A stretch of 64,000 bases of DNA from an uncultured Acidobacteriota bacterium (GTDB taxonomy: Bacteria > Acidobacteriota > Thermoanaerobaculia > UBA5066), in NCBI GenBank assembly GCA_963779415.1, contig CAVZYA010000001.1, positions 1,728,001 through 1,792,000 on the forward strand. The letters run 5' to 3'. The notes below the pieces were generated by a model. The model was not told where the DNA came from and did not search any database. It saw only the letters and a list, made by a program, of their open reading frames with translations. The translations under genes and the position numbers were made by a program. This document shows positions 4,793 to 22,244 of the stretch, one piece after another (within the stretch, counting starts at the first letter, position 1; every line of letters starts with the position of its first letter).

Positions 4793-4820
4793 GGCGGTGT
4801 CCTTTCTTCGGACGGAGCGA

Positions 4821-4863: not shown

Positions 4864-4869
4864 GACCCC

Positions 4870-5385: not shown

Positions 5386-5449
5386 CTAATCGTAACCGGG
5401 AGGAACTTTATCTCCTGCTCCCGGAATCCGAAATGAGGAGTCTGAACCC

Positions 5450-6037
5450 ATGAGTCCGATCGTAGGCCAACGGGCCCCCGAATTCGCCCTCGAAGGCGTC
5501 CTGAACGGCAACTTCTCCACTTACCGCCTGACCGACTTCCGCGGAAAGTGGCTGGTCCTCTTCTTCTATCCGCTCGACTTCACCTTCGTCTGTCCGACGG
5601 AGATTCTCGCCTTCTCCGACCGGCTCGGAGAGTTCCAAAAGCTCGGCGCCGAGGTGCTGGGCGCGTCCGTCGACTCGAAGTACAGCCATCTGGCCTGGAC
5701 GGAGAGGCCCCGCGAGGAAGGGGGGATCAAGGGCCTCGCCTATCCGCTTCTCGAGGATCTCGGAAAGGAGCTCTCCCGCGGGTACGGCGTCCTCTCCCCG
5801 GACGGGCTCGTCGCCCTGCGGGGCCTCTTCCTGATCGATCCCGAAGGAGTCGTCCAGCACGCCACGATCAACAATCTCGGGGTCGGGCGCTCCGTGGACG
5901 AGACGCTGCGCGTCCTCCAGGCCTTCCAGTTCGTGCGCGAGCACGGAGAGGTCTGCCCGGCCGACTGGAAGCCCGGGACGAAGACGATGAAGGCCGACTG
6001 GAAGGGCTCGAAGGAGTATTTCGCCAAGGCGAAGTAA
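5450..6037 (+). CDS. Typical 2-Cys peroxiredoxin (AhpC/Prx1)
   Basis: [14 protein letters not shown] and GEVCPADW motifs. Confidence 0.96.
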
Positions 6038-7010: not shown

Positions 7011-7019
7011 CGCCGGGCG

Positions 7020-8168
7020 TCAGGACGGGCTCTTGGCCGTCTCCAGAAAGCTCTCCAGCGCGGCCAGCCACTCGAGCCTCGTGTCGCGGAACCGTCTCTC
7101 GTACTCGCGAACCTTCTGCTTCACGGCGTGGCGGACATCCGACGGAGGGTCTTGGCCGCGCGCTTTCGCCGCCCTCAGCTCTAGGTGCCGTGCGTACGCA
7201 TCCTTCCAGAGCCGAAGAGCCTCGTCGACCCGGGCGCGGCCCCGCTCCAGGCGCACCCGGAACTCGTCGACGACCTCCGTCGGGGTCCGTGCGAGCCGCT
7301 CTTCGGCCCGCGCCGCGAGGACGGCGAGCTTCGCGTTCTCGATGACGGGGGGCGGGGTCACGCGCAGGTTGCGGGCGAGGCCGGAGATCCGGAATGCCTG
7401 GATGCACCACTTGTTCGGATCCCACTGATACCAGCGGACGCCGTTCCGGAAGTCGGACGGAAAACGGTGATGGAAGTTGTGATACCCCTCACCGTGCGTG
7501 AAGAACGCGAGGAGCCAGTTGTCGCGCGCGGAATTCTCCGTCGAGTAGGGGCGGGACCCGTAGAGGTGCGCGACCGAATTCACCAGAAATGTCGTGTGGT
7601 GTACGAGGACGACCCTCAGGAAACCGCCCCAGAGGAGCCCGCCGAGCGGGCGGCCGAAGAGCGCGCCGACCAGGGTCGGGAGGCCGAGCCCCAGCCCGAC
7701 GCCGATCAGCCGGTACCAGCGGTGCTGCCACATGACGCGCGGATTCGAGAGAAGGTCGGGCACGTTCTCGAAGGTGCTCCCGGGGGGATCCTCGTAGAAG
7801 ACCCAGAGGACATGTGCCCAGAGCGCGCCCCGTCCGATGTTGTAGGGATCCCGGTCCGTGTCGACGAAGCGGTGGTGGTTCCGGTGGTCCCGTGCCCACC
7901 GCAGAGCCGAGTTCTGAAGCGCGAACGCCCCGAAGAAGAGGAGGGCCGCCTCGACCGCCGGGTCGCACTCGTAGGTTCGGTGGGAAAAGCAGCGGTGGTA
8001 GCCCGCCCCGACGGCGATCCCGACGGTCGCGAACAGGGAGAGGCAGAGGAGGGGCTCCCACCACGCCACGCCGAACCGCGACGCGTAGAGCGCCGTCCCC
8101 GCGATTCCCGCGGCCGGGGAGAGGATCAGAAAGAGAATATTCGTCCAATCGAGCTTCCGGTCCTGCAT
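7020..8168 (-). CDS. Delta-9 acyl-CoA/acyl-lipid fatty acid desaturase
   Basis: His boxes HRCFSH, HRNHH, HNFHH; WYQWDPNKW; helical C-terminal extension. Confidence 0.93.
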   Translation of the reverse strand: MQDRKLDWTNILFLILSPAAGIAGTALYASRFGVAWWEPLLCLSLFATVGIAVGAGYHRCFSHRTYECDPAVEAALLFFGAFALQNSALRWARDHRNHHRFVDTDRDPYNIGRGALWAHVLWVFYEDPPGSTFENVPDLLSNPRVMWQHRWYRLIGVGLGLGLPTLVGALFGRPLGGLLWGGFLRVVLVHHTTFLVNSVAHLYGSRPYSTENSARDNWLLAFFTHGEGYHNFHHRFPSDFRNGVRWYQWDPNKWCIQAFRISGLARNLRVTPPPVIENAKLAVLAARAEERLARTPTEVVDEFRVRLERGRARVDEALRLWKDAYARHLELRAAKARGQDPPSDVRHAVKQKVREYERRFRDTRLEWLAALESFLETAKSPS

Positions 8169-8213
8169 TAACGCAGTCTATACCCCGGAAGCCGTACCGG
8201 AAGCCCGAGCCCC

Positions 8214-8240
8214 GCGTCCGCGAGCCGCCAGGTCCCGTCC
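8214..8240. repeat. 27-bp direct repeat, left copy (displaced, degenerate 3' piece of the BamA-like gene)
   Basis: gcgtccgcgagccgccaggtcccgtcc identical to 11447-11473; minus translation GPLDGTWRLADAGLGL versus GPPDGTWRLADAGVGL. Confidence 0.85.
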
Positions 8241-8260
8241 AGGGGGCCTCCCCTTCCGCC

Positions 8261-8368
8261 TCAGTACCAGGCGTCCGGGCTCATCGAAAGCCAGCTCCCG
8301 TCCGACGTGACCGCGTCGTTCAGGACGCCATAGGTGAGGAACGTGTAGTCGCCGGAGATGCGCGTCAT
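8261..8368 (-). pseudogene. C-terminal remnant of a secreted protein
   Basis: Manual translation TRISGDYTFLTYGVLNDAVTSDGSWLSMSPDAWY*, resembling the neighbour's ending YVSVVDNVSGDTSWLPVS. Confidence 0.55.
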
Positions 8369-8394
8369 ACCAAGGGTCCGTCATACCAAGGGTC
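8363..8394. repeat. Perfect 16-bp tandem duplication abutting an AAGGGTCAG motif
   Basis: cgtcataccaagggtc at 8363-8378 and 8379-8394. Confidence 0.9.
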
Positions 8395-8448
8395 AGAACC
8401 CACGTCCTCTCTCGCCGGCCGTCGGGGCGCGTGGTTGGCCCTGGGTCC

Positions 8449-10157
8449 TCAGGGCCCGAACTCGTCGTCTGAAACCGGCAGCCACGACGTGTCGCCCGAG
8501 ACGTTGTCGACAACGCTGACGTAGGGGAAGACGGGCGCGCTGGCGGTCACGACGAGGTAGGCGTTGGACGTAACCACGGAACCCGCGCCGACCAGCTCGA
8601 AGATGTTCGGCGCGAGCTGGAGGGCTTCCTGCGGGCCCCATGTTCTCGTGAACTCTCCGAGAAGCGTCCCGTCTCCGCCCCAAAGAGCGAATGTGATGTC
8701 CACCGGGATCTCTTGCGGGTTGTACGCGCCGGCGTTCGAGCGCGAGCCGGCGTTGAGGCTTCCGCCCCACGCGAGGCCGAGGAAGAGCGCCCGCGTCCGG
8801 GCGTCCATCGCCGTCTGAGCCGGGATCATCGACCCGTACGCCGGGGTCGGAGGCAGAGGCGTCGAGACCTTCGAGGATGCGCTGACCGGACCCGTGGAAG
8901 TCGGCCATGAGATCTCAATGGCGCCCGAGGTCCCCGGAGCCATGAACGTCTGTCCGATGACGTCAGTCAGCATCAGCTCCTGCCGTGCCGGAATGCTCCA
9001 ACCCGACCCTCCAGTGCCGCACGCGCCGCCGCCTGTACAGCGATAGACGAGCGTCACCGATGCGGGGGCCGTGTAGGACCGGTTCATCAGCCAGAGGTCG
9101 GTGTGGAAGAGGGTCCCGTTGATGCCTGCCTTCGACGCGGCGGTCGGGATCGTCAACGTGACCGTCCCCGAGGCCGACCCGGAGAGGTCGAGCCGGCCGA
9201 TCTTGTTGCCGATCCACTCCGTGAACCAGATAGCGCCGTCGGGGCCGGAGCTGATGCCGTGCGGCTGGGCGCTCCGACGTCGGGACAGGGAACACGGTGA
9301 TGGTGCCGTCGGTGAAGATCCGGCCGATCGCTTCGCTCGTTGAGCTCGGTGAACCAGAGGGCGCCGTCGGGGCCGAGGCAGATGCCGGAGGGGGTGCCAT
9401 TCGCCGTGAACTCGGTGATGGTGCCGCCGGTGGTGATCCGGCCGATCCCGCCGTTGGACTCCGTGAACCAGAGAGCGCCATCGGGGCCGAGGCAGATGCC
9501 GTAAGGGGCGCTGCCCGCCGTCGGGACCGGGTACTCCGTAATCATGCCCGCAGTCGTGATCCGGCCGATCTTGTTCCCCTTGAGCTCTGTGAACCAGAGG
9601 TTTCCGTCGGGGCCGGAGGCAATCGCATTGGCCTCGCTGCCCGCCGTCGGGATCGGGAACTCGGTGATGACGCCGACAGGTGTGATCCGGCCAATCCTGT
9701 TGCCGTCGGGGCCACTCTCCGTGAACCAGAGGTTGCCGTCGGGGCCGGAGGTAATCCCTTCCGGCGAGCTGTATGCCTGCGGGATCGGGAACTCGGTAAT
9801 GACGCCGGCAGGTGTGATCCGGCCGATCTTGTTGCCGATCAACTCCGTGAACCAGAGAGCGCCGTCGGGGCCGGAGCTGATGCCTTCGGGCTGGGCGCTT
9901 GGCGTCGGGACAGGGAACTCGGTGATGGTGCCGCCGATGGTGATCCGCCCGATCTTGTGGCCGGCGGCCTCGGTGAACCAGAGAGCGCCGTCGGGGCCGC
10001 GGCAGATGCTGATGGGGTAACTGCTCGGCGTCGGGAGCGAGAACTCAGTGATTACGGGCTGCCCGTAGCTCGCTGTCGGCCAGCCGAGGACGAAGCAGAG
10101 GACAAGCGTCACCGGGAAGCCGAACCAGCTACTGGGCTCTATCGGGATGTGTGACAT
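8449..10157 (-). CDS. Secreted Vgb (virginiamycin B lyase)-like beta-propeller plus C-terminal beta-rich domain; two apparent +1 frameshifts near 9275 and 9337
   Basis: Signal peptide; seven GPDGxxWFTE..IGRI repeats spread over ORFs 9153-10676, 8963-9481 and 8449-9156; TIPTAASKAGINGTLFHTDLW domain. Confidence 0.8.
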
Positions 10158-10336
10158 CGACTTTCTCCTGTTCGTGACGGGCAGACACTCATGCCCACGC
10201 CCTTCCTCGTAGTCCCAAGGATGAGGATCCCTCCGTAGTGTCGTGATGAGCCCGCCGACCAACGCTTCGGTCGAGCTGAGGTACCGGCGAAGCGACACTC
10301 TTGTCCAAGATCGGGCGTAAAACATTCGCGGAGTGA

Positions 10337-10561
10337 GTCGAAGCCCCAGCTCGTCCCCTGCAGCTTCCAGACGCCGCTGATCGTCCCGGCCCAGAGCGTC
10401 GTGCCGTCGGAGGCGAGGGCGTTCGTGTCGGCCCCTTCCAGACCGGCCACCGGCTGGAACCAGAGCCCGGCTTCTGACGGCGCCGCCCCGGAAGAACAGA
10501 AAGCCACGACGACGGCAAGCCACACGAACCGTCGATGTCGCCTCGATTCCCTTAGACGCAT
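10337..10561 (-). pseudogene. N-terminal remnant of a secreted propeller protein
   Basis: Signal peptide, then VAGLEGADTNALASDGTTLWAGTISGVWKL, then abrupt loss of protein-like sequence. Confidence 0.55.
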
Positions 10562-10726
10562 CTCGTGGGCGCTCTTCCGTGGGGGACCGGCCTGGCGGGG
10601 CATCGGGCGTCCTCCATTCGCTACGAATTCGGGAGGGTCGAGCCTCCGGCGCATCGCTCTGCGGGAATGATGCCACCGGCCGGGTGCGTCAGACTGCCGG
10701 AGGAGACGCGAGCCGGGCGGCAGGCC

Positions 10727-11038
10727 TCACCTACGGTCCGCCCAGTAGCCGGGCCGCCGCTTGTGATGCATGACAGCCACGATCCGAATGCGGTCCGGCT
10801 CGACGGCGTAGACGAGGCTGTAGGGGAATCCGGAGAGGACCTTGCGGCGAACGCCCCCTGGACGGACGACGGGAGCCGACTCGGGCGCGATCCGGATCCG
10901 GTCGATGCCGCGCACGACTTCGGCCTCGAACCGTGCTCCGAGCCCCCGCTCTTCTCTTTCGTAATATCGGACCGCTTCCGTCAGCTCGGCGTCGGCCCCG
11001 GGGTGGAGATGGACCTTACGAGCGGGCGGCTCGGGCAC
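10727..11038 (-). CDS. Type II toxin, RelE/ParE family
   Basis: HPGADAELTEAVRYYE..GLGARF, FPYSLVY, VAVMHHKRRPGYW. Confidence 0.9.
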   Translation of the reverse strand: MPEPPARKVHLHPGADAELTEAVRYYEREERGLGARFEAEVVRGIDRIRIAPESAPVVRPGGVRRKVLSGFPYSLVYAVEPDRIRIVAVMHHKRRPGYWADRR

Positions 11039-11240
11039 GGGCGAGGGACTCCTTCAGCGGGATCTCCTTGACCTTCCCGTCACGCATCTCGCGAAGGCGT
11101 CGCTCCGCCTCGTCGAGCCAGAGCGATTCGACCTCGGCCTCCGTCAGCTCGTCCAGGCTGTCCAGCAGGCGGCGGGCGATCCGGGCCCGGCTCTTGTGAT
11201 CGAGCTTCAGGGCCGCAGCGACGATCTGCTCCGTGCTCAT
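11016..11240 (-). CDS. Addiction module antitoxin (TIGR02574-like)
   Basis: ALKL..RARIARRLLDSLD..WLDEAERRLREMRDGKV; overlaps the toxin start. Confidence 0.88.
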   Translation of the reverse strand: MSTEQIVAAALKLDHKSRARIARRLLDSLDELTEAEVESLWLDEAERRLREMRDGKVKEIPLKESLARARAARS

Positions 11241-11307
11241 CGTCTCGGATTCTATCGTCCCTCCAATGTCGATCGGGCGGCGTCCTTCCGGACGGAATGC
11301 CTCAGGC

Positions 11308-12852
11308 TCAGAACGCCTGGCTCGAGGCGAACGAGACGAGCCAGCCGGTCCGTCCGAGCGGATCGGGATTGAAGGCTCGCGCGACGTCGAGGCGGAGGAG
11401 CGACATCTGCGACGCGCGCGTCAACCCGAATCGGAGGCCGACACCGGCGTCCGCGAGCCGCCAGGTCCCGTCCGGCGGGCCCCACGACACCCCGGTGTCG
11501 AAGAAGACCGCCGCTCCGATCGAGACGAGATGCAGGAGATCGCGGAAATAGACCTTGCGCAGCTCGAAGTTCCCGACGAGGTGGCCGGTCGCCGAGACGG
11601 CGTGGAGGCGGTAGGCCCGGACGCCCGTCTCTCCGTCGAGATAGATCTGGAACTCCGGGTCGAGGCGCCAGCCCGAGACGACGCCGATCCGGGCGACGAG
11701 CGTGCCGTCGGGAATCTGAAGGATGGCACGGAGGTCGAGGTTCACGATCGCGTTCTGGGGGCCGTTCTCGTAACGCGTCTCGGCGCTCACCGTCGCCAGC
11801 GAGAAGCCGTGCGGAAGGAGCGTTCCCATCGCGCCGCGCAGCGTCATCCGGGCGGCGCCCGTCGCGCCGAAGACCTGCGGGGAGAGGCCAAGCTGGATCT
11901 GCCCCACCGGTGCGAGGTTGAAGTCCTCGACCCGGTCGATCCTGTCGACGTCCATCCGTTGAATCCATCCCAGGGCCTCCCGCTCGACTCCCGTGCCGAT
12001 GAAGAAAAAGCGGCGCGGGAGCGAGGGCGGAGGCGGCGGCGGCCCGAAAGGCCCGGCCGTGACGGTCGTGTCGTTGAACTCCAAGAAACCGAGAACCCGG
12101 TTCGCCGTGGTCTCCGAGAGGGAGACCCGGAGCCCCCCGTCGGCGCGAAGGAACTCCCGGCGCTCCGAATAGATCGCCGCCTCCTCGCCCCCGGCGTAGA
12201 TCTTCGGCTCGAAGCGGGCCTGCTGGAGATCCGTCCCCCACGCCCACTTCGTGTCGAGCGCGTAGAAGGGTCGGTTCAGACCCGCTTCATAGTACGTACC
12301 GTCCGAGAGGTTCGAGTAGACGAGCTTCAGGAGGGTGTACGGCTCGAGGAAGGCCGGGTCCGCGAAAGTGAACGACCGCGAGGTTCTTTCCGTCCCCTTG
12401 TCGTACAGGAACTTCAGCTGGCGTCCCGTGCCGAGGAGGTTCGCCTCCTCCACGCCGACCTGATAGGACGTGAAGCCCCCCTTGCTGGAGTAGGCCCCTC
12501 GAAGAAGGAGCGTCCATGTGTCGCCGGTCTCGACGATGACCTTCGTCCCTTCGTACCGGACGACGACGAAGCGAAAGAGACCCGTGGCACGGAGGTTCCG
12601 CTCCGTCTCGGCGAATTTTTCCGGGTCGATCGGATCGCCGACGTCAAAGAGGAGGAACTTCCGGATCAGACTCTTCCGGCTGACGGCATGGAGGGCGTTC
12701 GCGAGGCCGTACGGGAAGAACGAAGCCGCCGCTTCGGTGGGGCTGAAGACGTTGTCCGACCGGATCTCGATCTCGGTGATCCGGGCCGGCTCTCCGAAAG
12801 CCGCCCGGGCGAGGAGGAGGGCGATCAGCGCCGCTCCCGAGCGAGCCCTCAC
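11308..12852 (-). CDS. BamA/TamA-like outer membrane beta-barrel protein with POTRA-like N-terminus
   Basis: Signal peptide, AETERNLRATGLF, EANLLGTG, VRAY, DAGVGLRFG, C-terminal Phe. Confidence 0.8.
   Translation of the reverse strand: MRARSGAALIALLLARAAFGEPARITEIEIRSDNVFSPTEAAASFFPYGLANALHAVSRKSLIRKFLLFDVGDPIDPEKFAETERNLRATGLFRFVVVRYEGTKVIVETGDTWTLLLRGAYSSKGGFTSYQVGVEEANLLGTGRQLKFLYDKGTERTSRSFTFADPAFLEPYTLLKLVYSNLSDGTYYEAGLNRPFYALDTKWAWGTDLQQARFEPKIYAGGEEAAIYSERREFLRADGGLRVSLSETTANRVLGFLEFNDTTVTAGPFGPPPPPPSLPRRFFFIGTGVEREALGWIQRMDVDRIDRVEDFNLAPVGQIQLGLSPQVFGATGAARMTLRGAMGTLLPHGFSLATVSAETRYENGPQNAIVNLDLRAILQIPDGTLVARIGVVSGWRLDPEFQIYLDGETGVRAYRLHAVSATGHLVGNFELRKVYFRDLLHLVSIGAAVFFDTGVSWGPPDGTWRLADAGVGLRFGLTRASQMSLLRLDVARAFNPDPLGRTGWLVSFASSQAF
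11447..11473. repeat. 27-bp direct repeat, right copy, inside the 3' end of the BamA-like gene
   Basis: Identical to 8214-8240. Confidence 0.85.
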
Positions 12853-13442
12853 GGGCGGCGGGGATCCCAGAGCGTCTCGCCGTCGCCGCGCGACCGAGCG
12901 ACCCAGCGCGAGAGGACGAAGAGGAGATCCGAGAGACGGTTCAGGTAGGGGAGGCAGTGCTCGCCGATCGCCTCCTGCCGCGCGAGCGTCGTCACGGAGC
13001 GCTCCGCCCGCCGGCAGACGGTCCGGGCCTGATGCAGGAAGGCCCCCACCGGGCCCCCGCCGGGAAGAACGAAGGACGTCAGTTCGGGGAGCCCTTCGTT
13101 GAACGCGTCGATCTCCGACTCGATCCCGGCGACGTGGCGCGCCTCGACGACCGGCTGGTTCGGATGGCGGTCGCCGGGAAGGGTCGCGAGGTCGGAGCCG
13201 AGGTTGAAGAGGTCGTTCTGGAGCCGGTCGAGAAGCGCGTCGAGGCGCGCCCTCCCGGCCTCCTCCCCGCCCGGCGTGACGCGATTGGCGACCCGCACGA
13301 GGCCGAGAACGGCGTTCAGCTCGTCCACCGTTCCGTAGCTCTCGATCCGGATCGAGTCTTTCGCGATCCGTTGTCCCCCCACGAGGCTCGTCTCCCCGCG
13401 GTCGCCCCCTCGCGTATAGACGCGGTTGATCCGGATCGGCAT
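12849..13442 (-). CDS. pduO: Cob(I)alamin adenosyltransferase, PduO type
   Basis: VYTRGGDRGETSL, YGTVDELN, FVLPGG, RTVCRRAER, YLNRLSD. Confidence 0.95.
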   Translation of the reverse strand: MPIRINRVYTRGGDRGETSLVGGQRIAKDSIRIESYGTVDELNAVLGLVRVANRVTPGGEEAGRARLDALLDRLQNDLFNLGSDLATLPGDRHPNQPVVEARHVAGIESEIDAFNEGLPELTSFVLPGGGPVGAFLHQARTVCRRAERSVTTLARQEAIGEHCLPYLNRLSDLLFVLSRWVARSRGDGETLWDPRRP

Positions 13443-13485
13443 CCTCGGCGCTCTCCCTCAGGCCGGCAGCTTACACTCCGTCGTC

Positions 13486-14307
13486 ATGCCTCCGGCGGAT
13501 TACGGGACCGACTATCACCTCCACACGGCGCGGTGCGGCCACGCGGGGGGAACGATGCGCGAGTTCGTCGAGTCCGCTCTCGCGAACGGCCTCGCCGAGA
13601 TCGCCTTCACCGACCACAGCCCGCTCTATTTCCTCCCGGGCGAGGACCCCGATCCGAATCTCGCGATGACGCGCTCCGAACTGCCGGGGTACGTGGAGGA
13701 GGTGCGCACGCTCCGCGACGAGTACCACGGGCGGATCGACGTCCTCCTCGGCCTCGAGGCCGACTACGCCGAAGGGCACGAAGCGGCCCTCCGGGAGATT
13801 CTCGAGGCGTACGACTGGGACGTCGTCCTCGGCTCGGTCCACTGGGTGGCCGGGGGCTGGATCGACGCGCCCGGCTCCGCGACACGCCACCGGGACGAAG
13901 GGACCGTCTTCCTCTGGTGGGAATACTGGCGTCTCGTCGCGAAGGCCTGTGGGACAGGGCTCTTCGACGTCATCTCCCACTTCGATCTCCCGAAGAAATT
14001 CGGGAACCGGATGCCGGAGTCGCTCCGGGGGGCCGAGGACCGCGCCGTGGAGGCGGCACGGAAGGCGCGCGTCGCGGTCGAGGTCTCGAGCGCCGGTCTC
14101 CGGAAGCCCGTCGGCGAGGAATACCCGGCCCCGGACCTTCTCCGGCGGCTCGTGGCCGCCGGCGTTCCGATCGTCTTCTCCTCCGACGCCCACGCCCCGG
14201 CCGAGGTCGCCTGGGGCCGGAGCCGCATCGTCGAGGCCGCCCTTCAGGCCGGCGCCACCGAGCAGCTCTCCTTCCGCCGCCGGAAGCCGCGGCCGCACCC
14301 GATCTGA
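13486..14307 (+). CDS. hisJ: Histidinol-phosphatase, PHP/HisJ family
   Basis: DYHLHT, FTDHSP, LGSVH, HFDLPKKF, SSDAH. Confidence 0.85.
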   Translation: MPPADYGTDYHLHTARCGHAGGTMREFVESALANGLAEIAFTDHSPLYFLPGEDPDPNLAMTRSELPGYVEEVRTLRDEYHGRIDVLLGLEADYAEGHEAALREILEAYDWDVVLGSVHWVAGGWIDAPGSATRHRDEGTVFLWWEYWRLVAKACGTGLFDVISHFDLPKKFGNRMPESLRGAEDRAVEAARKARVAVEVSSAGLRKPVGEEYPAPDLLRRLVAAGVPIVFSSDAHAPAEVAWGRSRIVEAALQAGATEQLSFRRRKPRPHPI

Positions 14308-14311
14308 GCGG

Positions 14312-14752
14312 TCAGCGCGCGGTCGATTCGCCCGCCGCGCCCTCCAGCTCGACCGCGAAGGAAGGCGTCACACGGAGCGTGAGCGAAACGAGCTGGCAGC
14401 GCCACCCTTCGCGCGCGATCCGCGCCGCCACCCGGTCCCAGATCCAGCGGGCGAGGTTCTCCGCCGTCGGGACGGTCCGCGCGAACTCGGGGATCTCGGC
14501 GTTGAGGTGGCGGTGGTCCAGCGGCCGGTCGACTTCCTCCTTCAGGATCCGGTCGAGGTCGGACAGATTCACGATCATCCCGTCCTCGGCGTCGACGGGG
14601 CCCGCGACGGAGACCTCGAGCACGTAGTTGTGCCCGTAGCCCGACGGGCTCGTGGCATCTCCGTACGTCTCGCGGTTCCACGCCTCGCTCTTCTCCGGAT
14701 TCCAGAGACGGTGAGCCGCGTTGAAGTGGATGGTCCGGGAAAGAGAGATCAA
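14312..14752 (-). CDS. queD: 6-carboxytetrahydropterin / 6-pyruvoyl-tetrahydropterin synthase
   Basis: FNAAHRL, GHNYVLEV, LDHRHLN, PTAENLA; the usual Cys and terminal ET motif are altered. Confidence 0.8.
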   Translation of the reverse strand: MISLSRTIHFNAAHRLWNPEKSEAWNRETYGDATSPSGYGHNYVLEVSVAGPVDAEDGMIVNLSDLDRILKEEVDRPLDHRHLNAEIPEFARTVPTAENLARWIWDRVAARIAREGWRCQLVSLTLRVTPSFAVELEGAAGESTAR

Positions 14753-14759
14753 GACTCTC

Positions 14760-15227
14760 TTATTTCACTCCGACCAGCTCGACATCGAAGATCAGCGTCG
14801 CGTTCGGCGGGATGACGCCGCCGGCGCCGCGGGCGCCATAGCCGAGGTCGGGCGGGATCAGCAGCGTGCGCTTGCCGCCGACCTTCATCGTGGCGACGCC
14901 CTCGTCCCATCCCTTGATGACGCGCCCCATCCCGAGAGGGAACTCGAAGGGCTTTCCGCGGTCGAAGGAGCTGTCGAACTTCGCCCCCTTCGCCCCGTTC
15001 ACCCAGAGCCAGCCCGTGTAGTGCATGACGCAGGTCTGGCCCGCCTTCGGCGACGCGCCCGTGCCGACTTTCGTCTCCTCGTACTGGAGGCCGGAGGGGG
15101 TCTTGACCATCTTCGACTCCTTCTTCTCCGCCGCGGCCGGCGGGGCGGCCTTCTCTTCGGCGGGCGCGGGCGCGGTCCAGAGGACGGCGACGGCCGGGAG
15201 GAGAAGGAGAGAGGCGTGCTTTTTCAT
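14760..15227 (-). CDS. FKBP-type peptidyl-prolyl isomerase (exported)
   Basis: Signal peptide, HYTGWL, FDSS, VIKGWDEG, LGYG, IPPNATLIFDVEL. Confidence 0.95.
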   Translation of the reverse strand: MKKHASLLLLPAVAVLWTAPAPAEEKAAPPAAAEKKESKMVKTPSGLQYEETKVGTGASPKAGQTCVMHYTGWLWVNGAKGAKFDSSFDRGKPFEFPLGMGRVIKGWDEGVATMKVGGKRTLLIPPDLGYGARGAGGVIPPNATLIFDVELVGVK

Positions 15228-15279
15228 CTTCCGGAAGCTTCCTTTCGTCGGTTTCGGCCCCGGGGGGCCGACGCGGAGT

Positions 15280-16623
15280 CTAACGCGCCCGCGCCGGAAT
15301 CCCGGCGACGACCCGGGCCACCTCCCCGGCGAGCTGCCCGGGGACGACCTCCTGAAGCTCGTACCGGACGCGAACGGACGGCTTCGACATCGTGACGACG
15401 CGTGCAAGGTCGATCGGTGTCCCGACGACGACGACGTCGCACGGCGTCCGCGCGATCGTCTCGGAAAGCTCTTCGACCTGCGTCGGACCGTAGCCCATCG
15501 CCGGGAGGATCCCGGCCGCGTTCGGGTACTTCCGGAAGGTCGACTCGATCGAGCCGACCGCGAAGGGGCGCGGGTCGACGATCTCCGCCGCTCCCGCGTT
15601 CTTCGCCGCGACGAGCCCGGCCCCGAAGCTCATGCCGCCGTGCGTGAGCGTCGGGCCGTCCTCGACGACGAGGGCCCTCCGGTTCCGCACGAGCTCCGGA
15701 TGCTCGCAGACGACCGGCGAGTTGCACCGGAGCACGCGTGCCTTCGGGTTCAGCCGCGCGGCCGCCGTCTCGACGAGGTGGATGTTCCCGGCGTCGGCCG
15801 TGTCGCACTTCCCGACGAGGATGAGGTCGGCGCGGCGGAAGTTCGCCTCGCCCGGGTGATAGCCGGTCTCGTGCCCGGGGCGGTGCGGGTCCGCCATGCA
15901 GATGTGGAGGGCGGGCTCGTAGAACGGGAGGTCGTTGTTGCCGCCGTCCCAGAGGATGACGTCGGCCTCGGCCTCCGCGCTCCGGAGGATCCGCTCGTAA
16001 TCGACCCCGGCGTAGACGACGAAGCCGTTGTCGAGGAGCGGCTCGTACTCCTCGCGCTCCTCGATCGTGCACTTCTCCCGGTCGAGGTCGGCGTACGCGG
16101 CGAAACGCTGGCAGGCCTGTGCCGCGAGGTCCCCGTAAGGCATCGGGTGGCGCACGGCGACGGCCCGAACCCCCAGCTCCTTGAGGAGCCGCGAAAGGTA
16201 GCGCGTCGTCTGGCTCTTCCCGGCGCCCGTCCGGACGGCGGTCACGGCGATGACCGGGACCTTCGCCTTCAGCATGGTGCGCGACGCGCCGAGAAGTGTG
16301 AAGTCCGCCCCCGCGGCGACGACGAGCGAGGCGAGGTGCATGACGGTCGCGTGGGCGACGTCGGAGTAGGAGAAGACGCAGAGGTCGATCTTCTCGTCGC
16401 GGATCAGGCGTGGAAGCTCCTCTTCGGGAAAGATCGGGATCCCGTCCGGGTAGAGCGGACCTGCGAGCGCGGCCGGATAGCGACGCCCTTCGATCCCCGG
16501 AATCTGGGTCGCCGTGAAGGCGACGACCCGGAGCGCCGGGTCGTCTCGGAAGACCGTGTTGAAGTCGTGGAAGTCGCGTCCGGCCGCACCGAGAATGACG
16601 ACTCGCCGCTGGGAACGCAGCAT
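15280..16623 (-). CDS. COG2403 P-loop ligase (cyclic 2,3-diphosphoglycerate synthetase-like / arginine synthetase ArcE-like)
   Basis: GAAGRDFHDFN, FTATQIP, AVRTGAGKS, RHPMPYG, EEREEYE, WDGGNND, EDGPTLTHG. Confidence 0.85.
   Translation of the reverse strand: MLRSQRRVVILGAAGRDFHDFNTVFRDDPALRVVAFTATQIPGIEGRRYPAALAGPLYPDGIPIFPEEELPRLIRDEKIDLCVFSYSDVAHATVMHLASLVVAAGADFTLLGASRTMLKAKVPVIAVTAVRTGAGKSQTTRYLSRLLKELGVRAVAVRHPMPYGDLAAQACQRFAAYADLDREKCTIEEREEYEPLLDNGFVVYAGVDYERILRSAEAEADVILWDGGNNDLPFYEPALHICMADPHRPGHETGYHPGEANFRRADLILVGKCDTADAGNIHLVETAAARLNPKARVLRCNSPVVCEHPELVRNRRALVVEDGPTLTHGGMSFGAGLVAAKNAGAAEIVDPRPFAVGSIESTFRKYPNAAGILPAMGYGPTQVEELSETIARTPCDVVVVGTPIDLARVVTMSKPSVRVRYELQEVVPGQLAGEVARVVAGIPARAR
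16556..16584. repeat. 29-bp direct repeat, left copy, in the 5' end of the COG2403 gene
   Basis: gtgttgaagtcgtggaagtcgcgtccggc identical to 20117-20145. Confidence 0.9.
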
Positions 16624-16865
16624 GGAAGCCCCCCGCGGCGCTGATTCTAGGGAGAAGCCCTCGGCAAGACTCTGATTCGGATGCCTCAGGGCGCGGAAGT
16701 TTCATCGCTCATGAGACGGTGACTTCGTAGGGCTCATGAGAAAGGGACCCACCCCCCGCAGGTCGTCGGAAATCGTCGATCCTACGGAGGGAAGGCCGCG
16801 AGGGGGTCGATTCTTCGTGATCGCGAGGGGGTCAGTCTTTCATGAGCGCGGGCACCTGATCCTAA

Positions 16866-17075
16866 TCACCCTTTTTCGATCATCGACCGGGGCGCCGCGT
16901 TGACGGCCGTCGACGCGGGAAATGCCGACGCGACGTCCGGGTCGAAAACCATGGCGATGACGCCCTTCGTCATGCGCGCCGCGAAGCGGTTTCGCCGCGA
17001 CTTCGCATAGTCGAAGCGGTACTCTGTGCGGAGTCCGGATGTCCCGACCTGCCTTCCAGCGCTGGCCTTCTTCGT
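16866..17075 (-). pseudogene. BrnA-like antitoxin remnant
   Basis: LRTEYRFDYAKSRRNRFA..FDPDVASAFP..AVNAA; expected ATG reads ACG. Confidence 0.65.
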
Positions 17076-17341
17076 AGTCGTGTCGTTCGCTCTTCGTGGC
17101 GCGGTGCGCGCTGAAAGATTCTGACGGATTCGCCGCGCTCCGCGAACGATACGACCAGGAGCTGTCGGCGCTGCGAGTGCCCCACGAGGATCTCCCGCGA
17201 TTCGCCGTCGGCGTGTGCGGGGTCGTCGAAGATCCGGCCCAGCGGATCGGCGAACGCCGTCAGGGCTTCGCCGAAGGAGACGCCATGCTTCGCGCGGTTC
17301 CTTCGCGCCTTCTCGCGGTTCCACTCGAAGATGAGCGACAT
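17060..17341 (-). pseudogene. BrnT toxin, frameshifted
   Basis: FEWNREKARRNRAKHGVSFGEA..FADP..ESREILVG..VRIF, then shifted SAHRATKSERHDYEE. Confidence 0.8.
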
Positions 17342-17786
17342 CGGCGGTTCCTGGAGGCTACAGCATGAGGCGACCGGCCGAGCCCCCCGTCTGCGCCGTC
17401 AGACCGGTCACGAAGAGCCCCCGCCGGCGGCGCGAAGAGCCGCGAGGTCCTCGTTACCCCCGACGAGTTCGACCAGATCGACCGGAACCGGAGGGCGTGA
17501 CGGGAGGGCACCGCGCGCCCCGGCGTTACGGAGGGCGGATCCAAATCTCCTGATCGCTACCGGATCACTTTCTCATGAGCGGTGACAGCGTGCGCGACAG
17601 TATGTTCCCAAGCGGAGACGCCCCCTGGTACGAGCCGTGCTGAGCGCCCGGCCCCTTCTCCCCGCCAGGCCGGAGCGCGCAGGGGGCGCCGACTCTTGGG
17701 TCGTGCTCTTCGAGCTGGATCACTGGGACGACGCCGGTTACATCACCACGGCGTCGCGGGCACGACCGCAAGCAGACTATAGATAT

Positions 17787-17838
17787 GAGACCTGACCCTT
17801 AGCCCTTACCCTTAGCCCTTCTTAGCCCTTTCTTAACC
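17787..17838. repeat. GAGACCTGACCCTT motif followed by short tandem repeats
   Basis: CTTAGCCCTT at 17798, 17811 and 17821. Confidence 0.85.
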
Positions 17839-17920
17839 GAAACGCGCGGCCGATCCGCTGGTCCTACTCCGATCCGTCTCACAGAATCCAACCCGCTTCC
17901 GCTTCTTCACGTACGAGCCA

Positions 17921-19561
17921 CTAGAGGAGGCGCTTAGCGAGCAGCATGCCCGCCGCGGCGAGCACCAGGGCGAGGAGCGCCAGAGACCTCCCGTCGAGGG
18001 TCGGGACCACAGTGGGGATCCCGGGGGTCACGGTGGGTGTCGGTGTCGGCCCCCCCTGGCAAATCGCCTCGTAGTCGATGGTGTCGCTGAAGACGTTCGA
18101 TTCCGTTCCACCCGACGTTTTGAGCTTGGCGTAGACGGTCTTCAGGCCGAATCCCGCCGACAGAGTCCAGTTCTTCGTCGCCGCGTACGGCTCGTAGACC
18201 GCGCCCGCGAAAAATGGGTCTTCGGAGATGATCATCTGCGTGATCGAGGGGTCCCCGAAGTTGTTGATCGAGAGCACGACATTCGCCGAGGTTGTGCAGG
18301 CCGCACCATCGTTGATGCTGATACCGCCCTGCGGCGGCGGGGTCCCCGAGGCGTAGAAGGCATACAGCCCGCCCCCGTCCAGCATCGCGAACACCCAACC
18401 GTCGGATATGGCGGGTGAGCAGGTATCGAAACCCTGAGTGTCCGCGGAAAACGTCGCGTACTCCGCCAGCACCTGGCCTGCCGAGCCGCTTCCGGCGGCG
18501 CCGACCACCTTCAGCTTCTGCGTTGTGCCCGCGCCGACGAACACCTTGTCGCCAGCGACGGAAGGCGAAGAGTAGTCGCGGCCCCCTGAGTCGCCGAGCT
18601 GAACCGAAGGGAAGCCAGTGAGCGTCGCGCCCGTGTTCTCGTCGAAGGCGTACAGGCGGCCGTCCCACCCGTACGTATACACGGCGCCGCCAGAGACGGC
18701 CGGGGAGCCGGAGTACGTGCTATCTCCCCCGTCAGGCTTGGACCACGCGAGAGTCCCATCGGAGAGCCTGTACACGTAGAGCTGATCGGCCTTGAAGAAG
18801 ATGAGGCCATCGACGACCGTCAAGCTCGAGACGCTCGACGCCGTCGAGATCGGGAAGCCGCCTACGACGACCTCGGCGCCGGTCGCCTTGTCATACTTGC
18901 GAATCGTGCTCGCCCCCGAGTTCGAGTACAGAAAGGATCCGGAGAGCGCCGGCTGGGTGTCGCTACCGGGGCATGGTACGGAATACTGCTGCACCCCCGC
19001 GGAGTTGTACTTCAGGAGGTTTCCGCCCGCCTTCACGTAGACGAAGCCTCCGTCGAGGAGGGGCCCTTCGTCATAGTTATACCCCAGGCTGCCAACGTTG
19101 GCGGTCCAGGCCGAACTCCCGTTCAGGTTGAACGCGAAGAGCGTCGAGCCGCCTCCCAGGGCGTAGATCTTGCCGTTCGCCACATCCACGGCGGGCGTGC
19201 CGTAGGTGGCCCCGATTGTTACCGGGAAGCCGGGTACGGCGACTCCCGTGGCGACCGTGAAGGCATACAGTTGGCCGGTGGTGGCCGCCATATACGCGAT
19301 GCCCCCGGCGACGACAACGCCGTTCTCCTCGACGAGAGGTGCCGTCGTATGCCAGCCGAGCGTCAGCGGAAGGTTGATCGTCTCCGATGACGCGGCAGCA
19401 TTCGAAGGCGTATTGCGCCACGTCGGCCAGTCGGCGCCAAAGGCGGCCGAGGTAGCGAACGCCATGCAGGTAACGAGGAAAGCAACGCAAGCGAGGCCCA
19501 GGAAGCCATTACGGTTGCTTTCCGGCGGCTGATTCGTAGTGAATCGAACTGTCCGTTCCAT
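17921..19561 (-). CDS. Secreted PQQ-like beta-propeller protein with IPTL-CTERM-like sorting signal
   Basis: Signal peptide, ADWPTWR, repeated SPAV..G..YAF..TG blades, PT linker, VVPTLDGRSLALLALVLAAAGMLLAKRLL tail. Confidence 0.85.
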   Translation of the reverse strand: MERTVRFTTNQPPESNRNGFLGLACVAFLVTCMAFATSAAFGADWPTWRNTPSNAAASSETINLPLTLGWHTTAPLVEENGVVVAGGIAYMAATTGQLYAFTVATGVAVPGFPVTIGATYGTPAVDVANGKIYALGGGSTLFAFNLNGSSAWTANVGSLGYNYDEGPLLDGGFVYVKAGGNLLKYNSAGVQQYSVPCPGSDTQPALSGSFLYSNSGASTIRKYDKATGAEVVVGGFPISTASSVSSLTVVDGLIFFKADQLYVYRLSDGTLAWSKPDGGDSTYSGSPAVSGGAVYTYGWDGRLYAFDENTGATLTGFPSVQLGDSGGRDYSSPSVAGDKVFVGAGTTQKLKVVGAAGSGSAGQVLAEYATFSADTQGFDTCSPAISDGWVFAMLDGGGLYAFYASGTPPPQGGISINDGAACTTSANVVLSINNFGDPSITQMIISEDPFFAGAVYEPYAATKNWTLSAGFGLKTVYAKLKTSGGTESNVFSDTIDYEAICQGGPTPTPTVTPGIPTVVPTLDGRSLALLALVLAAAGMLLAKRLL

Positions 19562-19671
19562 GCGGGTCCTCCTCAAGAAAGAAGCCAGCATCGGGGTGGT
19601 GCGCTTCTGGCATACCGCCACCGATGAATTCCAGGGCCGTGTTTTTGTCGCCTCCAGCTAAATCATCGGGG

Positions 19672-19699
19672 ATTCTGTTACATTTCAAGAGCATGTCAA
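19672..19699 (-). promoter_or_regulatory. sigma70-like promoter of the PQQ-propeller gene
   Basis: Minus strand TTGACA-N16-CAGAAT. Confidence 0.5.
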
Positions 19700-19746
19700 G
19701 TGGTCTTAGCAGAAATCAGCGGACAGATCCGTAGCAGCCGTCGCGC

Positions 19747-19924
19747 TGTGGACAAGTGGAAATGGGTGCCCTGGGTTCCTCCGGCGGTAGATTTGAGGTG
19801 AGAACAACAAGTCTGCCGAAAGGAGGGAACCGTGAGCACGCGCGAAAAGCTCATCAGGGCCCGGATGGGGATGCTGGCGCTGGCCGAAGAGCTCTCGAAC
19901 GTGTCGAGAGCGTGCCGAAGGGCC
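19747..19924 (+). mobile_element. IS481-family left-end remnant
   Basis: TGT terminus at 19747, AGGAGG RBS, GTG at 19832 giving VSTREKLIRARMGMLALAEELSNVSRACRRA, then truncated. Confidence 0.75.
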
Positions 19925-20110
19925 CTCCCGCCGGGTAGTCAGCCCGGGTGAGCTGGTATAGGGGGTCGAAGTAATACTTCGAAAGCGCCCCGTTCAGCCC
20001 CTGCGGCGGGACAGTCGCGGTCATTGACGTCCGTTGCCCGAGCATCGTGCTCTGGCCCGTCTGGTTGTTGACGTCGTAGCCGTAGGCGAAGCTCGCCAGG
20101 GTCGTTCCGG
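19915..20110 (-). pseudogene. RHS/YD-repeat protein internal fragment
   Basis: TTLASFAYGYD..GQRTSMT..YYFDPLYQLTRADYP. Confidence 0.7.
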
Positions 20111-20184
20111 AAGACTGTGTTGAAGTCGTGGAAGTCGCGTCCGGCGGCACCGAGGATGACGACGCGACGCACCGTGTAAGCCAT
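20095..20184 (-). pseudogene. Displaced 5' end of the COG2403 gene (contains the right 29-bp repeat, 20117-20145)
   Basis: GGAGG RBS plus MAYTVRRVVILGAAGRDFHDFNTVFRNDP, 11 bp after the fbp stop. Confidence 0.85.
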
Positions 20185-20195
20185 GAAAACCTCCG

Positions 20196-21239
20196 TCAGA
20201 TTCTCGCGAGGGAGTATGCCTTCGGCTCCGCCACCATGTCGTTCAGACGCGTCACATCGGCTTTCGATCCGATGAAGATCGGCGTTCGCTGGTGGTTCCT
20301 CTCCGGGAGGAGGTCGAGGATCCGTCCGTGGCCGTCGCTCGCCGCGCCGCCGGCCGCTTCCGAGACCGCAGCGAGCGGCGCCGCTTCGTACATGAGGCGG
20401 ATCTTCCCTTTGGGCCTCGTGTACGTCGCGGGGTACATGTAGATCCCCCCCTTGAGGAGGATCCGGTGGAAGTCCGAGACGAGGGCGCCCGAGTAGCGGG
20501 TCGAGTAGGGGCGTCCCGTCTCCGGGTCCCGCTGCTGGACCCATTCGACGAAGAGCCGTGCCCCTTCCTCCCATTCCTGGATCGCCCCTTCGTTCGCGCC
20601 GTAGTACGCCCCTTTTTCGGGGATCCTCACGTCGGGATTCGACAGGAGAAACTCGCCGATTCCCGGATCGAGCGTGAAGATGTGGACGCCCGGGTTCCCC
20701 TCGGCCGTGTAGACGAGCGTCGTCGACGGGCCGTAGGAGAAGTACCCCGCGACGACCTGCTCGCGGGAGATGCGCGCCATCAGCTCGGCTTCCGACGAGA
20801 TCGGGCCGCTCTTCGTCAGACGCCGGACCGAGAAGATCGACCCGACCCCGCCGTTGACGTCCAGATTCGAGGAGCCGTCGAGCGGGTCGAGAAAGACGAT
20901 GTACTTTCCGGCCTGCGTGTTCTCGGGCAGGTGCGCCGGAAGGTCCATCTCCTCCGTCACGATCAGCGGCACGAGCTGCCCGTACGAGAACGCCTCGAGG
21001 AAGACCTCGTTCGCAATGGCGTCCAGCTTCTGCTGCTGCTCTCCCTGCACGTTCATATCGCCCGAGGCCCCGAGGACGTCCATGAGCCCCGACGCCGAGA
21101 GGAGGCGCGAGATCCTCTTCCCCGCGAGGCCGAGCTGCGAGAGAAGGGCGGAGAGCTCGCCGGTGGCCTCCGGAAAGTGCCGCTCCGACTCGAAGAGGTA
21201 CCGGTGGAGCCGCATGCCGACACGGGGATCCCGGCTCAT
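20196..21239 (-). CDS. fbp: Fructose-1,6-bisphosphatase class 1
   Basis: NVQGEQQQKLD, DPLDGSSN, RYSGALVSDFHRIL, GKIRLMYEA. Confidence 0.96.
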   Translation of the reverse strand: MSRDPRVGMRLHRYLFESERHFPEATGELSALLSQLGLAGKRISRLLSASGLMDVLGASGDMNVQGEQQQKLDAIANEVFLEAFSYGQLVPLIVTEEMDLPAHLPENTQAGKYIVFLDPLDGSSNLDVNGGVGSIFSVRRLTKSGPISSEAELMARISREQVVAGYFSYGPSTTLVYTAEGNPGVHIFTLDPGIGEFLLSNPDVRIPEKGAYYGANEGAIQEWEEGARLFVEWVQQRDPETGRPYSTRYSGALVSDFHRILLKGGIYMYPATYTRPKGKIRLMYEAAPLAAVSEAAGGAASDGHGRILDLLPERNHQRTPIFIGSKADVTRLNDMVAEPKAYSLARI

Positions 21240-22231: not shown

Positions 22232-22244
22232 GTCGTCCTCCGTC

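Follow-up and report, generated by a model that had tools for sequence, protein, structure and literature searches.

Two small accessory segments flank a conserved six-gene core block, one on either side, in the window, the whole 64 kb stretch of acidobacterial DNA that we analysed (Table 1). We refer to them as island 1 (on the desaturase side) and island 2 (on the fbp side). The block runs from a COG2403-type gene to a gene for an Omp85-like protein, which matches NCBIfam BamA at E 1.7e-9 and Pfam Omp85 at E 9.3e-4, the latter under the cutoff. Its homologues bear PF01103 and BamA names. The Omp85-like protein ends in ...SSQAF, and the C-terminus is conserved among the 59 homologues listed. 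Homologues of the COG2403-type protein are named "predicted GTPase" or "cyclic 2,3-diphosphoglycerate synthase" in the sources. The C-terminus encoded by fbp is of the type found in its closest relatives. The core gene hflX reads in two frames, and so do propeller gene 1 and BrnT.

Table 1. Features of the two islands, the core block and the outer flanks (window positions)
Feature	Position	Strand	Details
Fatty-acid desaturase gene, outer flank of island 1	7020-8168	-	Pfam FA_desaturase E 8.6e-22
Omp85-like stub	8189-8248	-	60 nt, reads GPLDGTWRLADAGLGL; exact 27-mer at 8214-8240
Tandem duplication	8363-8396		Exact 16 nt, twice; ends in 9-mer, minus-strand CTGACCCTT at 8388-8396
Propeller gene 1	8449-10160	-	Read in two frames, 9153-10160 and 8449-~9300
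ORF fragment	10142-10561	-	N-terminus signal-peptide-like by eye
Type II TA pair	10727-11240	-	Antitoxin 11016-11240 overlaps ParE-family toxin 10727-11038
Omp85/BamA-like outer-membrane protein gene, intact	11308-12852	-	Repeat copy 11423-11481
Core genes between islands	12849-15407		Cobalamin adenosyltransferase, PHP phosphoesterase (+ strand), 6-pyruvoyl-tetrahydropterin synthase, FKBP isomerase
COG2403-type gene, intact	15280-16623	-	Repeat copy 16534-16609
COG2403 leader	16624-16688	-	65 nt upstream of intact gene; homologous to fbp-COG2403 spacer of relative L001
BrnTA module and surrounding repeats	16702-17585		BrnT 16970-17341 (-); BrnA-like ORF ~16869-17060 (-)
Short tandem repeats	17791-17835		Periods 7, 10, 13; include plus-strand 9-mer 17792-17800
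Propeller gene 2	17921-19621	-	Likely start 19561
IS481-family transposase stub	19820-19933	+	33 aa, N-terminus only
Open-frame fragment	19932-20093	-	Between transposase stub and COG2403 stub
COG2403 5' stub	20094-20195	-	GGAGG, ATG at 20184, 30 codons = MAYTVRRVVILGAAGRDFHDFNTVFRNDPG
Fructose-1,6-bisphosphatase gene (fbp), outer flank of island 2	20196-21239	-	Pfam FBPase E 3.6e-50

Propeller gene 1, in island 1, encodes a protein with a signal-like N-terminus, six NHL/Vgb-lyase-type blades spaced 128 nt apart in the gene, and a C-terminal domain of 235 aa. It belongs to Pfam Vgb_lyase (E 2.9e-94), and the last blade is read in the second frame. The C-terminal domain falls in no known family, and its Atlas matches are unnamed Acidobacteriota clusters only. 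Upstream, the ORF fragment has no match in Pfam or NCBIfam, and Atlas Reg_prop clusters score 0.88-0.89, under the 0.9 mark; as a lead only, it could be what is left of a third propeller gene, of Reg_prop-like type. The TA pair of this island is recognised by Pfam as ParE_toxin (E 9.7e-9) and Unstab_antitox (E 1.2e-10), the antitoxin also by TIGR02574, and it lies 67 nt from the stop of the intact Omp85-like gene.

In island 2 the toxin is a BrnT (Pfam BrnT_toxin, E 8.7e-17) whose C-terminus runs on in another frame, and the BrnA match is weak (E 0.04-0.056, under the cutoff). Around this module, a motif of ~19 nt centred on the palindrome CTCATGAG has copies at 16708, 16733, ~16840 and 17572; the palindrome occurs four times where 0.55 would be expected. 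A 19-nt inverted repeat (89%) also encloses it, 16732-16750 pairing with 17562-17580. The second propeller protein has a signal-like N-terminus and is of the PQQ/BamB type (Pfam PQQ_2, E 3e-16). It carries a domain of ~90 aa that recurs as a repeat in giant proteins, and a candidate C-terminal anchor with a weak IPTL-CTERM match (E 0.0025, 18.1 bits against a cutoff of 20.5). A promoter-like site for this gene lies at 19699-19672. The transposase stub was identified by tblastn against plasmids, where 30 records, with E from 6e-5, match it under genes named "IS481 family transposase". The neighbouring open-frame fragment has no Pfam match at E<=10 and no plasmid tblastn match; judged by eye only, it has a YD/Rhs-like look.

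Each island is bounded by an exact direct repeat, of 27 nt for island 1 (8214-8240 = 11447-11473) and of 29 nt for island 2 (16556-16584 = 20117-20145). In extended form these become 60 nt with a single 1-nt gap (8189-8248 vs 11423-11481) and 76/77 nt (16534-16609 vs 20094-20170), with an identity of about 85-90%. A repeat scan of the whole window gave 17 families, and the other families longer than 29 nt are confined to two internally repetitive regions. In both islands the stub lies at the outer border and the working gene on the inner side. The duplicated piece is a subterminal 3' part of the gene in island 1 and the 5' end of the gene in island 2. The COG2403 stub is a true gene end that begins 11 nt past the fbp stop with its GGAGG, and its homology extends 22-23 nt beyond the exact core on the island side. 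The Omp85-like stub joins directly onto a native-like upstream region of the desaturase gene. Thus, the exact repeats and gene-end duplicates described in the original prediction are present in both islands, but the duplicate in island 1 is subterminal, and the last ~115 nt of the Omp85-like gene, its true end, are missing from it.

The sole syntenic comparator is the relative L001, which is distant (~80% nucleotide identity; 83% identity for COG2403). Its gene order is kept: transaldolase, transketolase, g6pd, fbp, COG2403, FKBP, PTPS, PHP, CobAT, Omp85-like, desaturase, TrxR. In this relative fbp is followed directly by COG2403, with a spacer of ~100 nt. Past its Omp85-like gene there is neither TA nor propeller gene, and 955 nt of a desaturase paralogue stand there instead. 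By blastn, window 16688-12856 aligns with L001 9921-13769, a match that includes the COG2403 leader. Window 8175-6021 aligns with L001 16348-18512, so that homology restarts at 8175, beside the desaturase. Empty-site alleles, for which the original prediction had proposed to look, are therefore found at both positions, and the two segments are true lineage-specific insertions.

Between the two copies of a gene end about 10-15% of bases differ, and 12 of the 16 changed codons across both pairs are silent (7/8 in island 2, 5/8 in island 1). At four-fold sites the copies differ at 6/14 and 5/11 positions; between the window genome and L001, four-fold identity is 0.47-0.66 over 14 genes. Since the silent-site divergence of the copies is about that between the genome and L001, one copy of each pair is foreign. 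Because the differences are mostly silent and of this level, each copy evolved as a functional gene in its own lineage; the stubs are xenologous. The exact cores lie in the most conserved parts of the proteins. That of island 2 encodes GAAGRDFH, present in 120/120 listed COG2403 homologues and followed by DFHDFNT or a close variant, and that of island 1 encodes DG.W.LADAG, conserved in most of the 59 listed Omp85-like homologues. The COG2403 stub begins with MAYTVRR, resembling the closest relatives (MASTVRR in P0002, P0004-P0007); the N-terminus of the working protein, MLRSQRR, is unique among the homologues listed. Compared with L001, the intact COG2403 copy has fewer differences before the core (2/24 vs 5/24 in the stub) and the stub has fewer after it (3/22 vs 5/22). 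With 2-5 differences this switch is not significant, and we take it as no more than weakly suggestive of a crossover within the core. A mosaic signal was sought in COG2403, the Omp85-like gene and fbp against their closest protein relatives, and none was found.

We suggest that the islands do not belong to a mobile cassette family but are static scars, left where recombination drove an insertion and displaced a gene end, and we give this reading an even chance of being right. Foreign DNA would have arrived with a diverged copy of one resident gene end, which would comprise the leader and first ~30 codons of COG2403 in one case and the last ~58 codons of the Omp85-like gene in the other. It would then have crossed over with the resident gene inside the 27-29 nt patch, identical because it is the most conserved part of the gene. 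This would leave a functional hybrid gene, with the displaced stub on the far side of the insert. The exchange could have occurred by homology-facilitated illegitimate recombination, or by a single crossover of the RecA type in a patch of minimal length. We infer both the topology of the crossover and the enzyme; most likely homology drove the recombination, and less likely a dedicated integrase. Later decay would include an IS481 insertion followed by truncation, a deletion of ~140 nt in the Omp85-like stub and the truncation of ORFs. Both the TA pairs and the propeller genes, whose products are secreted or at the surface, would be passenger cargo. Chromosomal type II TA modules (parDE-like, brnTA) stabilise islands or superintegrons. 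Here TA pairs likewise sit within small accessory segments and may slow the loss of the inserts, though with BrnT in two frames and BrnA weakly recognisable a stabilising role is putative. Against the scar reading stand the missing mosaic signal and the extra deletion that the Omp85-like stub requires. The reading also leaves a coincidence unexplained: the scars lie 5 kb from each other, and in both a TA pair adjoins the working gene end (by our own estimate, chance would place the TA pair there in about 1 in 4 cases).

The main rival is that the islands are decayed site-specific integrative elements, in which an attP with a replacement gene end would have recombined at the 27-29 nt core before the integrase gene was lost. 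Some integrative elements target genes and bring a duplicated gene end that restores them; phage 21 and e14, both in icd, and the tRNA-targeting islands are examples. Such elements share with our islands direct repeats with an identical core inside a gene, a gene kept intact by the element-borne end, and empty sites in relatives. An exact core with decaying, imperfect flanking homology also resembles an att site, so a lost integrase stays in play, and the weak switch around the COG2403 core suits a reciprocal crossover there. We regard this explanation as unlikely. No integrase, tRNA or Rfam element was found in or near the islands, which are also without excision genes, and the sole recombinase trace is the transposase stub. 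Moreover, the homology of the COG2403 stub continues past the core on the side where restoration has no use for it, the other stub is without the actual gene end, and two independent losses would be needed in islands without a common backbone. The position of both stubs at the outer borders, contiguous with native-like outer flanks, could instead reflect the import of a single foreign segment of ~11.9 kb (8249-20093), comprising the COG2403-to-Omp85-like block and its accessory flanks, which replaced the resident block and left the resident ends as stubs. One event would then account for neighbouring scars. However, inner and outer genes have equal, saturated silent-site divergence from L001, the best database protein identities are similar (COG2403 92%, fbp 92%, Omp85-like 88%), and two illegitimate joints would be required in one event, all of which makes this improbable. 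An assembly artefact, with strain variants of the gene ends strung around unrelated DNA, might be suspected from the indel errors that split hflX, propeller gene 1 and BrnT between frames. It is extremely unlikely: the window proteins are on a contig of 2,184,206 nt, a contiguity that repeats of 27-29 nt do not confuse, the base differences are unlike sequencing error in being mostly silent, and the junctions are clean.

The original prediction saw instead islands of one architecture, either TA-stabilised cassettes that swap surface or secreted proteins and are mobilised in trans by a recombinase elsewhere, or reduced relics of one element family. Much of what it described is there. Each island has one secreted or surface beta-propeller gene plus debris, the latter including the IS481 stub, and neither has an intact recombinase gene, although that stub means that island 2 is not wholly free of recombinase sequence. 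A TA pair does lie beside each intact gene end, with the reservations given for BrnTA, and the repeats around BrnTA would also suit a mobile unit. Yet the islands have no shared backbone: the best match between them is 18 nt by blastn (E 0.03) and 29 aa by tblastx (E 0.003), they have no common ends, and they target different kinds of gene end. Their TA pairs (ParE vs BrnT) come from different families, as do their propellers (Vgb_lyase vs PQQ_2), which are unrelated to each other. All genes lie on the minus strand, and yet the TA pair is upstream of the propeller gene in island 1 but downstream of it in island 2, which speaks against one layout in inverted copies. The common 9-mer beside tandem duplications exists, but only in island 1 does it share a strand with the propeller gene (island 2 has it on the opposite strand), and it is at chance level: at least one 9-mer was common to 1010/2000 shuffled pairs and to 1583/2000 random pairs of real segments of the island sizes. 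No further unit, integrase or TA occurs in the rest of the window. Thus, the claim of one architecture fails, one element family and mobilisation in trans are unsupported, and we consider this explanation very doubtful.

The scar reading has a precedent in PMC5361080, whose references include Jackson (2009), de Vries and Wackernagel (2002) and Prudhomme (2002). In the passages of PMC5361080 that concern Rhs loci and the Vibrio cholerae T6SS effector-immunity arrays, incoming modules leave displaced gene ends, which are explained by homology-facilitated illegitimate recombination. As here, a homologous anchor displaces the gene end, an orphan stub stays beside the insert, and there is no integrase. 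In contrast to what those passages describe, the targets here are housekeeping genes rather than polymorphic toxins, a TA pair and a propeller gene take the place of effector-immunity pairs as cargo, each site has a single stub instead of an array, and in one case the 5' end plus leader is displaced. Oliveira, Touchon and Rocha 2017 (PMC5635113) state that about half of the HGT hotspots are without recognisable mobile elements, that flanking core genes show recombination, and that hotspot turnover is proposed to proceed through it. Our islands are similar in having accessory genes between core genes and no recognisable mobile elements. With one comparator, they are at most candidate hotspots, and in their xenologous stubs they keep a further trace, of a kind that ordinary double crossovers in the flanks would not leave. 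If the scar reading is true, foreign DNA with a TA pair and a surface-protein gene can scar the ends of housekeeping genes by ordinary recombination.

Both segments are insertions. In a search of genome contigs with COG2403, the best match, at 83% identity, was L001 (contig CAWGDR010000011.1, from an Acidobacteriota MAG), and among the best 80 of 601 matching stretches this is the sole locus with neighbouring genes in common. The gene order from the transaldolase to the CCG-domain gene is the same in L001 and the window. In L001, COG2403 directly follows fbp after a spacer of ~100 nt, and after the Omp85-like gene come first a paralogue and then the orthologue of the desaturase. Island 1, which lies between the desaturase and the Omp85-like gene of the window, and island 2, between COG2403 and fbp, are both absent from this syntenic locus, the only one among those 80 stretches. 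The empty sites for which the original prediction proposed a search are thus seen in L001.

L001 differs from the window in other ways too. It has two tandem desaturase genes (15418-16295 and 16355-17501 of L001) versus one in the window, and the extra gene, 69% identical to that of the window, sits in the place of island 1. Two genes of the window are missing from the matching places in L001: the glucokinase gene glk, which the window has between g6pd and fbp, and the AhpC gene, which it has between TrxR and rubrerythrin. They make two further single-gene indels within the same 24 kb, so that the two genomes commonly differ by small indels. In five more distant loci (L002, L004, L010, L016 and L028), COG2403 lies in a context unrelated to that of the window. 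L028, from a distant Thermoanaerobaculia MAG with COG2403 at 63%, has a homologue of BrnT at 46% identity, some 5 kb upstream of COG2403, and an Omp85-family gene immediately upstream on the other strand (L028 features 4814-5020 and 8331-9806). Closer relatives are known from the protein collection, with COG2403 orthologues at 88-92% identity; four carry COG2403 and the Omp85-like gene on the same contig (61,924, 15,872, 17,537 and 7,994 nt).

The window has a G+C content of ~68%. The contig given for its proteins is 2,184,206 nt long, and their closest relatives are named Thermoanaerobaculia or Acidobacteriota in the sources. Genes were called from third-position G+C and then checked with Pfam. 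The remainder of the 64 kb consists of housekeeping genes. The search for further units of the same kind came back empty: outside the islands, neither TA genes nor integrases nor dispersed repeats were seen in the 64 kb window. The window lacks tRNA genes, and the stretch 7000-22000 lacks Rfam matches. Terminator-like sites (6 versus 5.8 expected) and promoter-like sites (1 versus 0.8) occur in chance numbers. One open reading frame far from the islands is highly repetitive, with alternating 12-nt and 18-nt periods in ~95 overlapping copies, and has no Pfam match.

Features of the two islands and their surroundings (window positions)
Feature	Position	Strand	Remark
AhpC gene	5425-6021
Desaturase	7020-8168	-	third-position G+C and Pfam
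Window-specific DNA, island 1	8176-11298		relative to L001
Stub, island 1	8189-8248
Exact repeat core, island 1	8214-8240 = 11447-11473		27 nt
Island 1	between desaturase and Omp85/BamA-like gene	-	all genes on this strand
Short ORF	10142-10561		island 1 debris; Reg_prop-like lead only
Omp85/BamA-like gene	11308-12852	-	third-position G+C and Pfam
Cobalamin adenosyltransferase, PHP, PTPS, FKBP	between Omp85-like gene and COG2403	- (PHP +)
COG2403-type 'GTPase / cyclic 2,3-diphosphoglycerate synthase'	15280-16623	-
Exact repeat core, island 2	16556-16584 = 20117-20145		29 nt
Window-specific DNA, island 2	16689-20253		relative to L001
Island 2	between COG2403 and fbp	-	all genes on this strand
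Copies of the ~19-nt motif	16702-16758, 16790-16848, 17529-17585		around palindrome CTCATGAG
Terminator-like hairpin	16764-16746
Propeller 2	17921-19561
IS481-family transposase stub	19820-19933		N-terminal 33 aa; island 2 debris
Open frame without family assignment	19932-20093		island 2 debris
Stub, island 2	20094-20184
fbp	20196-21239	-	then glk and g6pd
glk	21241-22245
hflX	26884-28554 and 27465-28172	-	two overlapping frames
Repetitive ORF	60246-62036	+	repetitive stretch ~60086-61800

The borders of the islands bear on how they may have come to be there. In each island a displaced, diverged piece of a gene end (the stub) runs on into a native-like outer flank, and the exact cores sit within imperfect direct repeats of 60 nt (island 1) and 76/77 nt (island 2), at roughly 85-90% identity. 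The stub of island 2, a true 5' end with GGAGG and 30 codons from the ATG at 20184, begins 11 nt past the fbp stop. The stub of island 1 is a subterminal 60-nt piece only, the last ~115 nt of the gene being missing. It adjoins sequence upstream of the desaturase that resembles its L001 counterpart, as though a deletion had removed ~140 nt. The copies of each gene end are xenologues from different lineages. Of the 16 codons that changed between the copies, 12 are synonymous (7/8 in island 2 and 5/8 in island 1), and 6/14 and 5/11 four-fold sites differ. Since this four-fold divergence is about that between the window and L001 (identity 0.47-0.66 over 14 genes), one copy in each pair comes from a lineage about as distant as L001. 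A stub drifting freely after duplication in place should show mostly protein-altering changes; by our own arithmetic, the probability of at most one non-synonymous change among eight is ~0.02, assuming that 55% of random changes are non-synonymous.

The longest identity falls at the cores because these encode invariant or nearly invariant family motifs, GAAGRDFH.FN among 120 COG2403 homologues and DG.W.LADAG among the 59 Omp85-like homologues printed. The N-terminus of the COG2403 stub (MAYTVRR) is near the MASTVRR of the closest relatives, and the fbp that precedes it has a C-terminus of the type of its nearest relatives. The working copy of COG2403 has a unique start (MLRSQRR) and a 65-nt leader that aligns with the L001 spacer. 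L001 is closer to the working copy ahead of the core (2/24 versus 5/24 differences) and closer to the stub past it (3/22 versus 5/22), numbers that are too small for significance. This switch would fit one reciprocal crossover within the core, in which the resident gene recombined with foreign DNA that spanned the leader and the codons up to 30. At the protein level, COG2403, the Omp85-like gene and fbp showed no mosaicism when tested against close relatives.

Much of what was first described at the two sites stands, namely the gene-end repeats, the TA genes, the propellers and the debris. The proposed identity of architecture does not. In island 1, ParE_toxin (E 9.7e-9) and Unstab_antitox (E 1.2e-10) matches in Pfam lie in overlapping ORFs and make up a type II TA pair. 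In island 2 the toxin is BrnT (E 8.7e-17), whose C-terminus continues in another frame, with possible assembly indels as in hflX, and the BrnA match is weak and below the cutoff (E 0.04-0.056). The two propeller genes belong to unrelated families, propeller 1 of island 1 being Vgb_lyase/NHL-type and split over two frames, and propeller 2 of island 2 PQQ_2-type with a sub-threshold IPTL-CTERM tail. The order in island 1 is working end, antitoxin, toxin, fragment, propeller, stub, and in island 2 stub, fragments, propeller, toxin, antitoxin, leader, working end; thus the layouts are neither colinear nor inverted copies. The best match between the islands is 18 nt in blastn (E 0.03) and 29 aa in tblastx (E 0.003). 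The 9-mer with adjacent tandem duplications is indeed present in both, in an orientation that differs relative to the propeller gene. At least one 9-mer is in common in 1010 of 2000 shuffled pairs and in 1583 of 2000 random pairs of real segments of these lengths, so a common 9-mer is expected by chance. That a TA pair lies beside the working end in both islands has an estimated chance of ~1 in 4.

Most of the debris frames had no match in Pfam or NCBIfam, and Atlas searches on the cargo gave leads only. The unassigned open frame of island 2 looked Rhs/YD-like by eye, an impression that was dropped when searches gave no support. The whole of propeller 2 is common to ~20 cluster representatives at 54-64% identity with very different total lengths, and its residues ~405-500 form a domain of ~90 aa, of which giant proteins in a representative library, the longest of 5363 aa, contain as many as 41 copies. 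The core GTPase gene hflX is split in its middle domain, with the N and M(1-40) domains in one frame and M(29-78) and the GTPase domain in the other. Indel errors in the assembly are therefore probable, and for this reason the frameshifts in propeller 1 and BrnT are not readable as pseudogenes.

No recombinase was found by Pfam and NCBIfam in any stop-to-stop frame of either island, where the sole trace of one is the IS481 transposase stub (the first 33 aa). A transposase paired with terminal inverted repeats at the borders, as in an IS or composite transposon, was not seen. Local inverted-repeat scans, which covered 8170-8480, 10100-11320 and 16600-17950, found none in the stub-side border stretch of island 1. 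A MITE-like mobile TA unit would have terminal inverted repeats and many copies in the genome; the surroundings of BrnTA hold a 19-nt inverted repeat at 89% and four motif copies, as counted in the 64 kb window. The palindrome CTCATGAG occurs four times in the window versus 0.55 expected, and three of the four are around BrnTA, within motif copies that flank the pair. One copy overlaps the terminator-like hairpin. The motif might act as an operator or terminator, or it might be a small repeat element.

The topology to be explained combines a hybrid gene that works with an insert and, beyond it, a displaced stub. It could result from one RecA-type crossover where the resident and incoming DNA shared a minimal length of identity, or from homology-facilitated illegitimate recombination. 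It can also arise from an integrase acting on the core. Some elements insert into genes and rebuild the end of their target, and both islands have att-like direct repeats with an identical core at both borders. We favor the homology-driven routes because there is no integrase or fragment of one in either island, because the homology of the COG2403 stub extends beyond the core, into a stretch not required for restoring the gene, because the islands have nothing in common that one element would share, and because the inserts themselves are mosaic, containing an IS stub and truncated ORFs. Import of all 11.9 kb (8249-20093) in one event would likewise account for the position of both stubs at the outer edges; silent sites in the inner and outer genes are saturated against L001 and uninformative on this reading.

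With nothing of a common element in the islands, the proposal of one family of cassettes mobilised in trans is not supported. A related idea is that small TA-bearing cassettes without a recombinase of their own spread in these Acidobacteriota through a copy of a core-gene end and a single crossover. A short, diverged core-gene end would be carried in, cross over at a minimal patch of identity and swap the gene end, leaving the old end as a stub, while the TA pair beside the new end would protect the insert from being lost by way of the repeats on either side. Gene-end swapping would then be a general route of insertion without an integrase. We regard this as improbable. The segments are probably immobile today. 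Recombination between the repeats of island 2 would restore a working gene, that between the repeats of island 1 would truncate the Omp85-like protein, and the TA pairs might oppose loss of the segments.

Comparable scars are known. At Rhs loci and in Vibrio T6SS effector-immunity arrays, incoming modules have left displaced gene ends behind, which PMC5361080 attributes to homology-facilitated illegitimate recombination, and the displaced stub beside foreign DNA is common to those loci and to our islands. Homology-assisted illegitimate recombination is also put forward for small variable segments in PMC2884548. In the hotspot survey of PMC5635113, half of the HGT hotspots are given as without recognisable mobile elements and 27% as without any integrase or transposase, and the core genes flanking hotspots as recombining more often. 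A literature search on Thermoanaerobaculia and genomic islands, judged by titles and abstract openings, found none on such islands. Our verdict, with confidence limited by a single distant comparator, is that the islands are a further example of this known kind of scar. No new mechanism is indicated, and the cargo, TA pairs together with propeller proteins of the surface, is ordinary accessory content.

For annotators, the islands are a caution that "att-like" repeats inside genes need not imply an integrative element. They also provide a clean natural example of accessory genes entering beside core genes without visible mobile-element machinery. The traces of such entry are short stubs of resident genes, diverged as much as another genus, and these stubs can be used for dating insertions and tracing donors in uncultured lineages.
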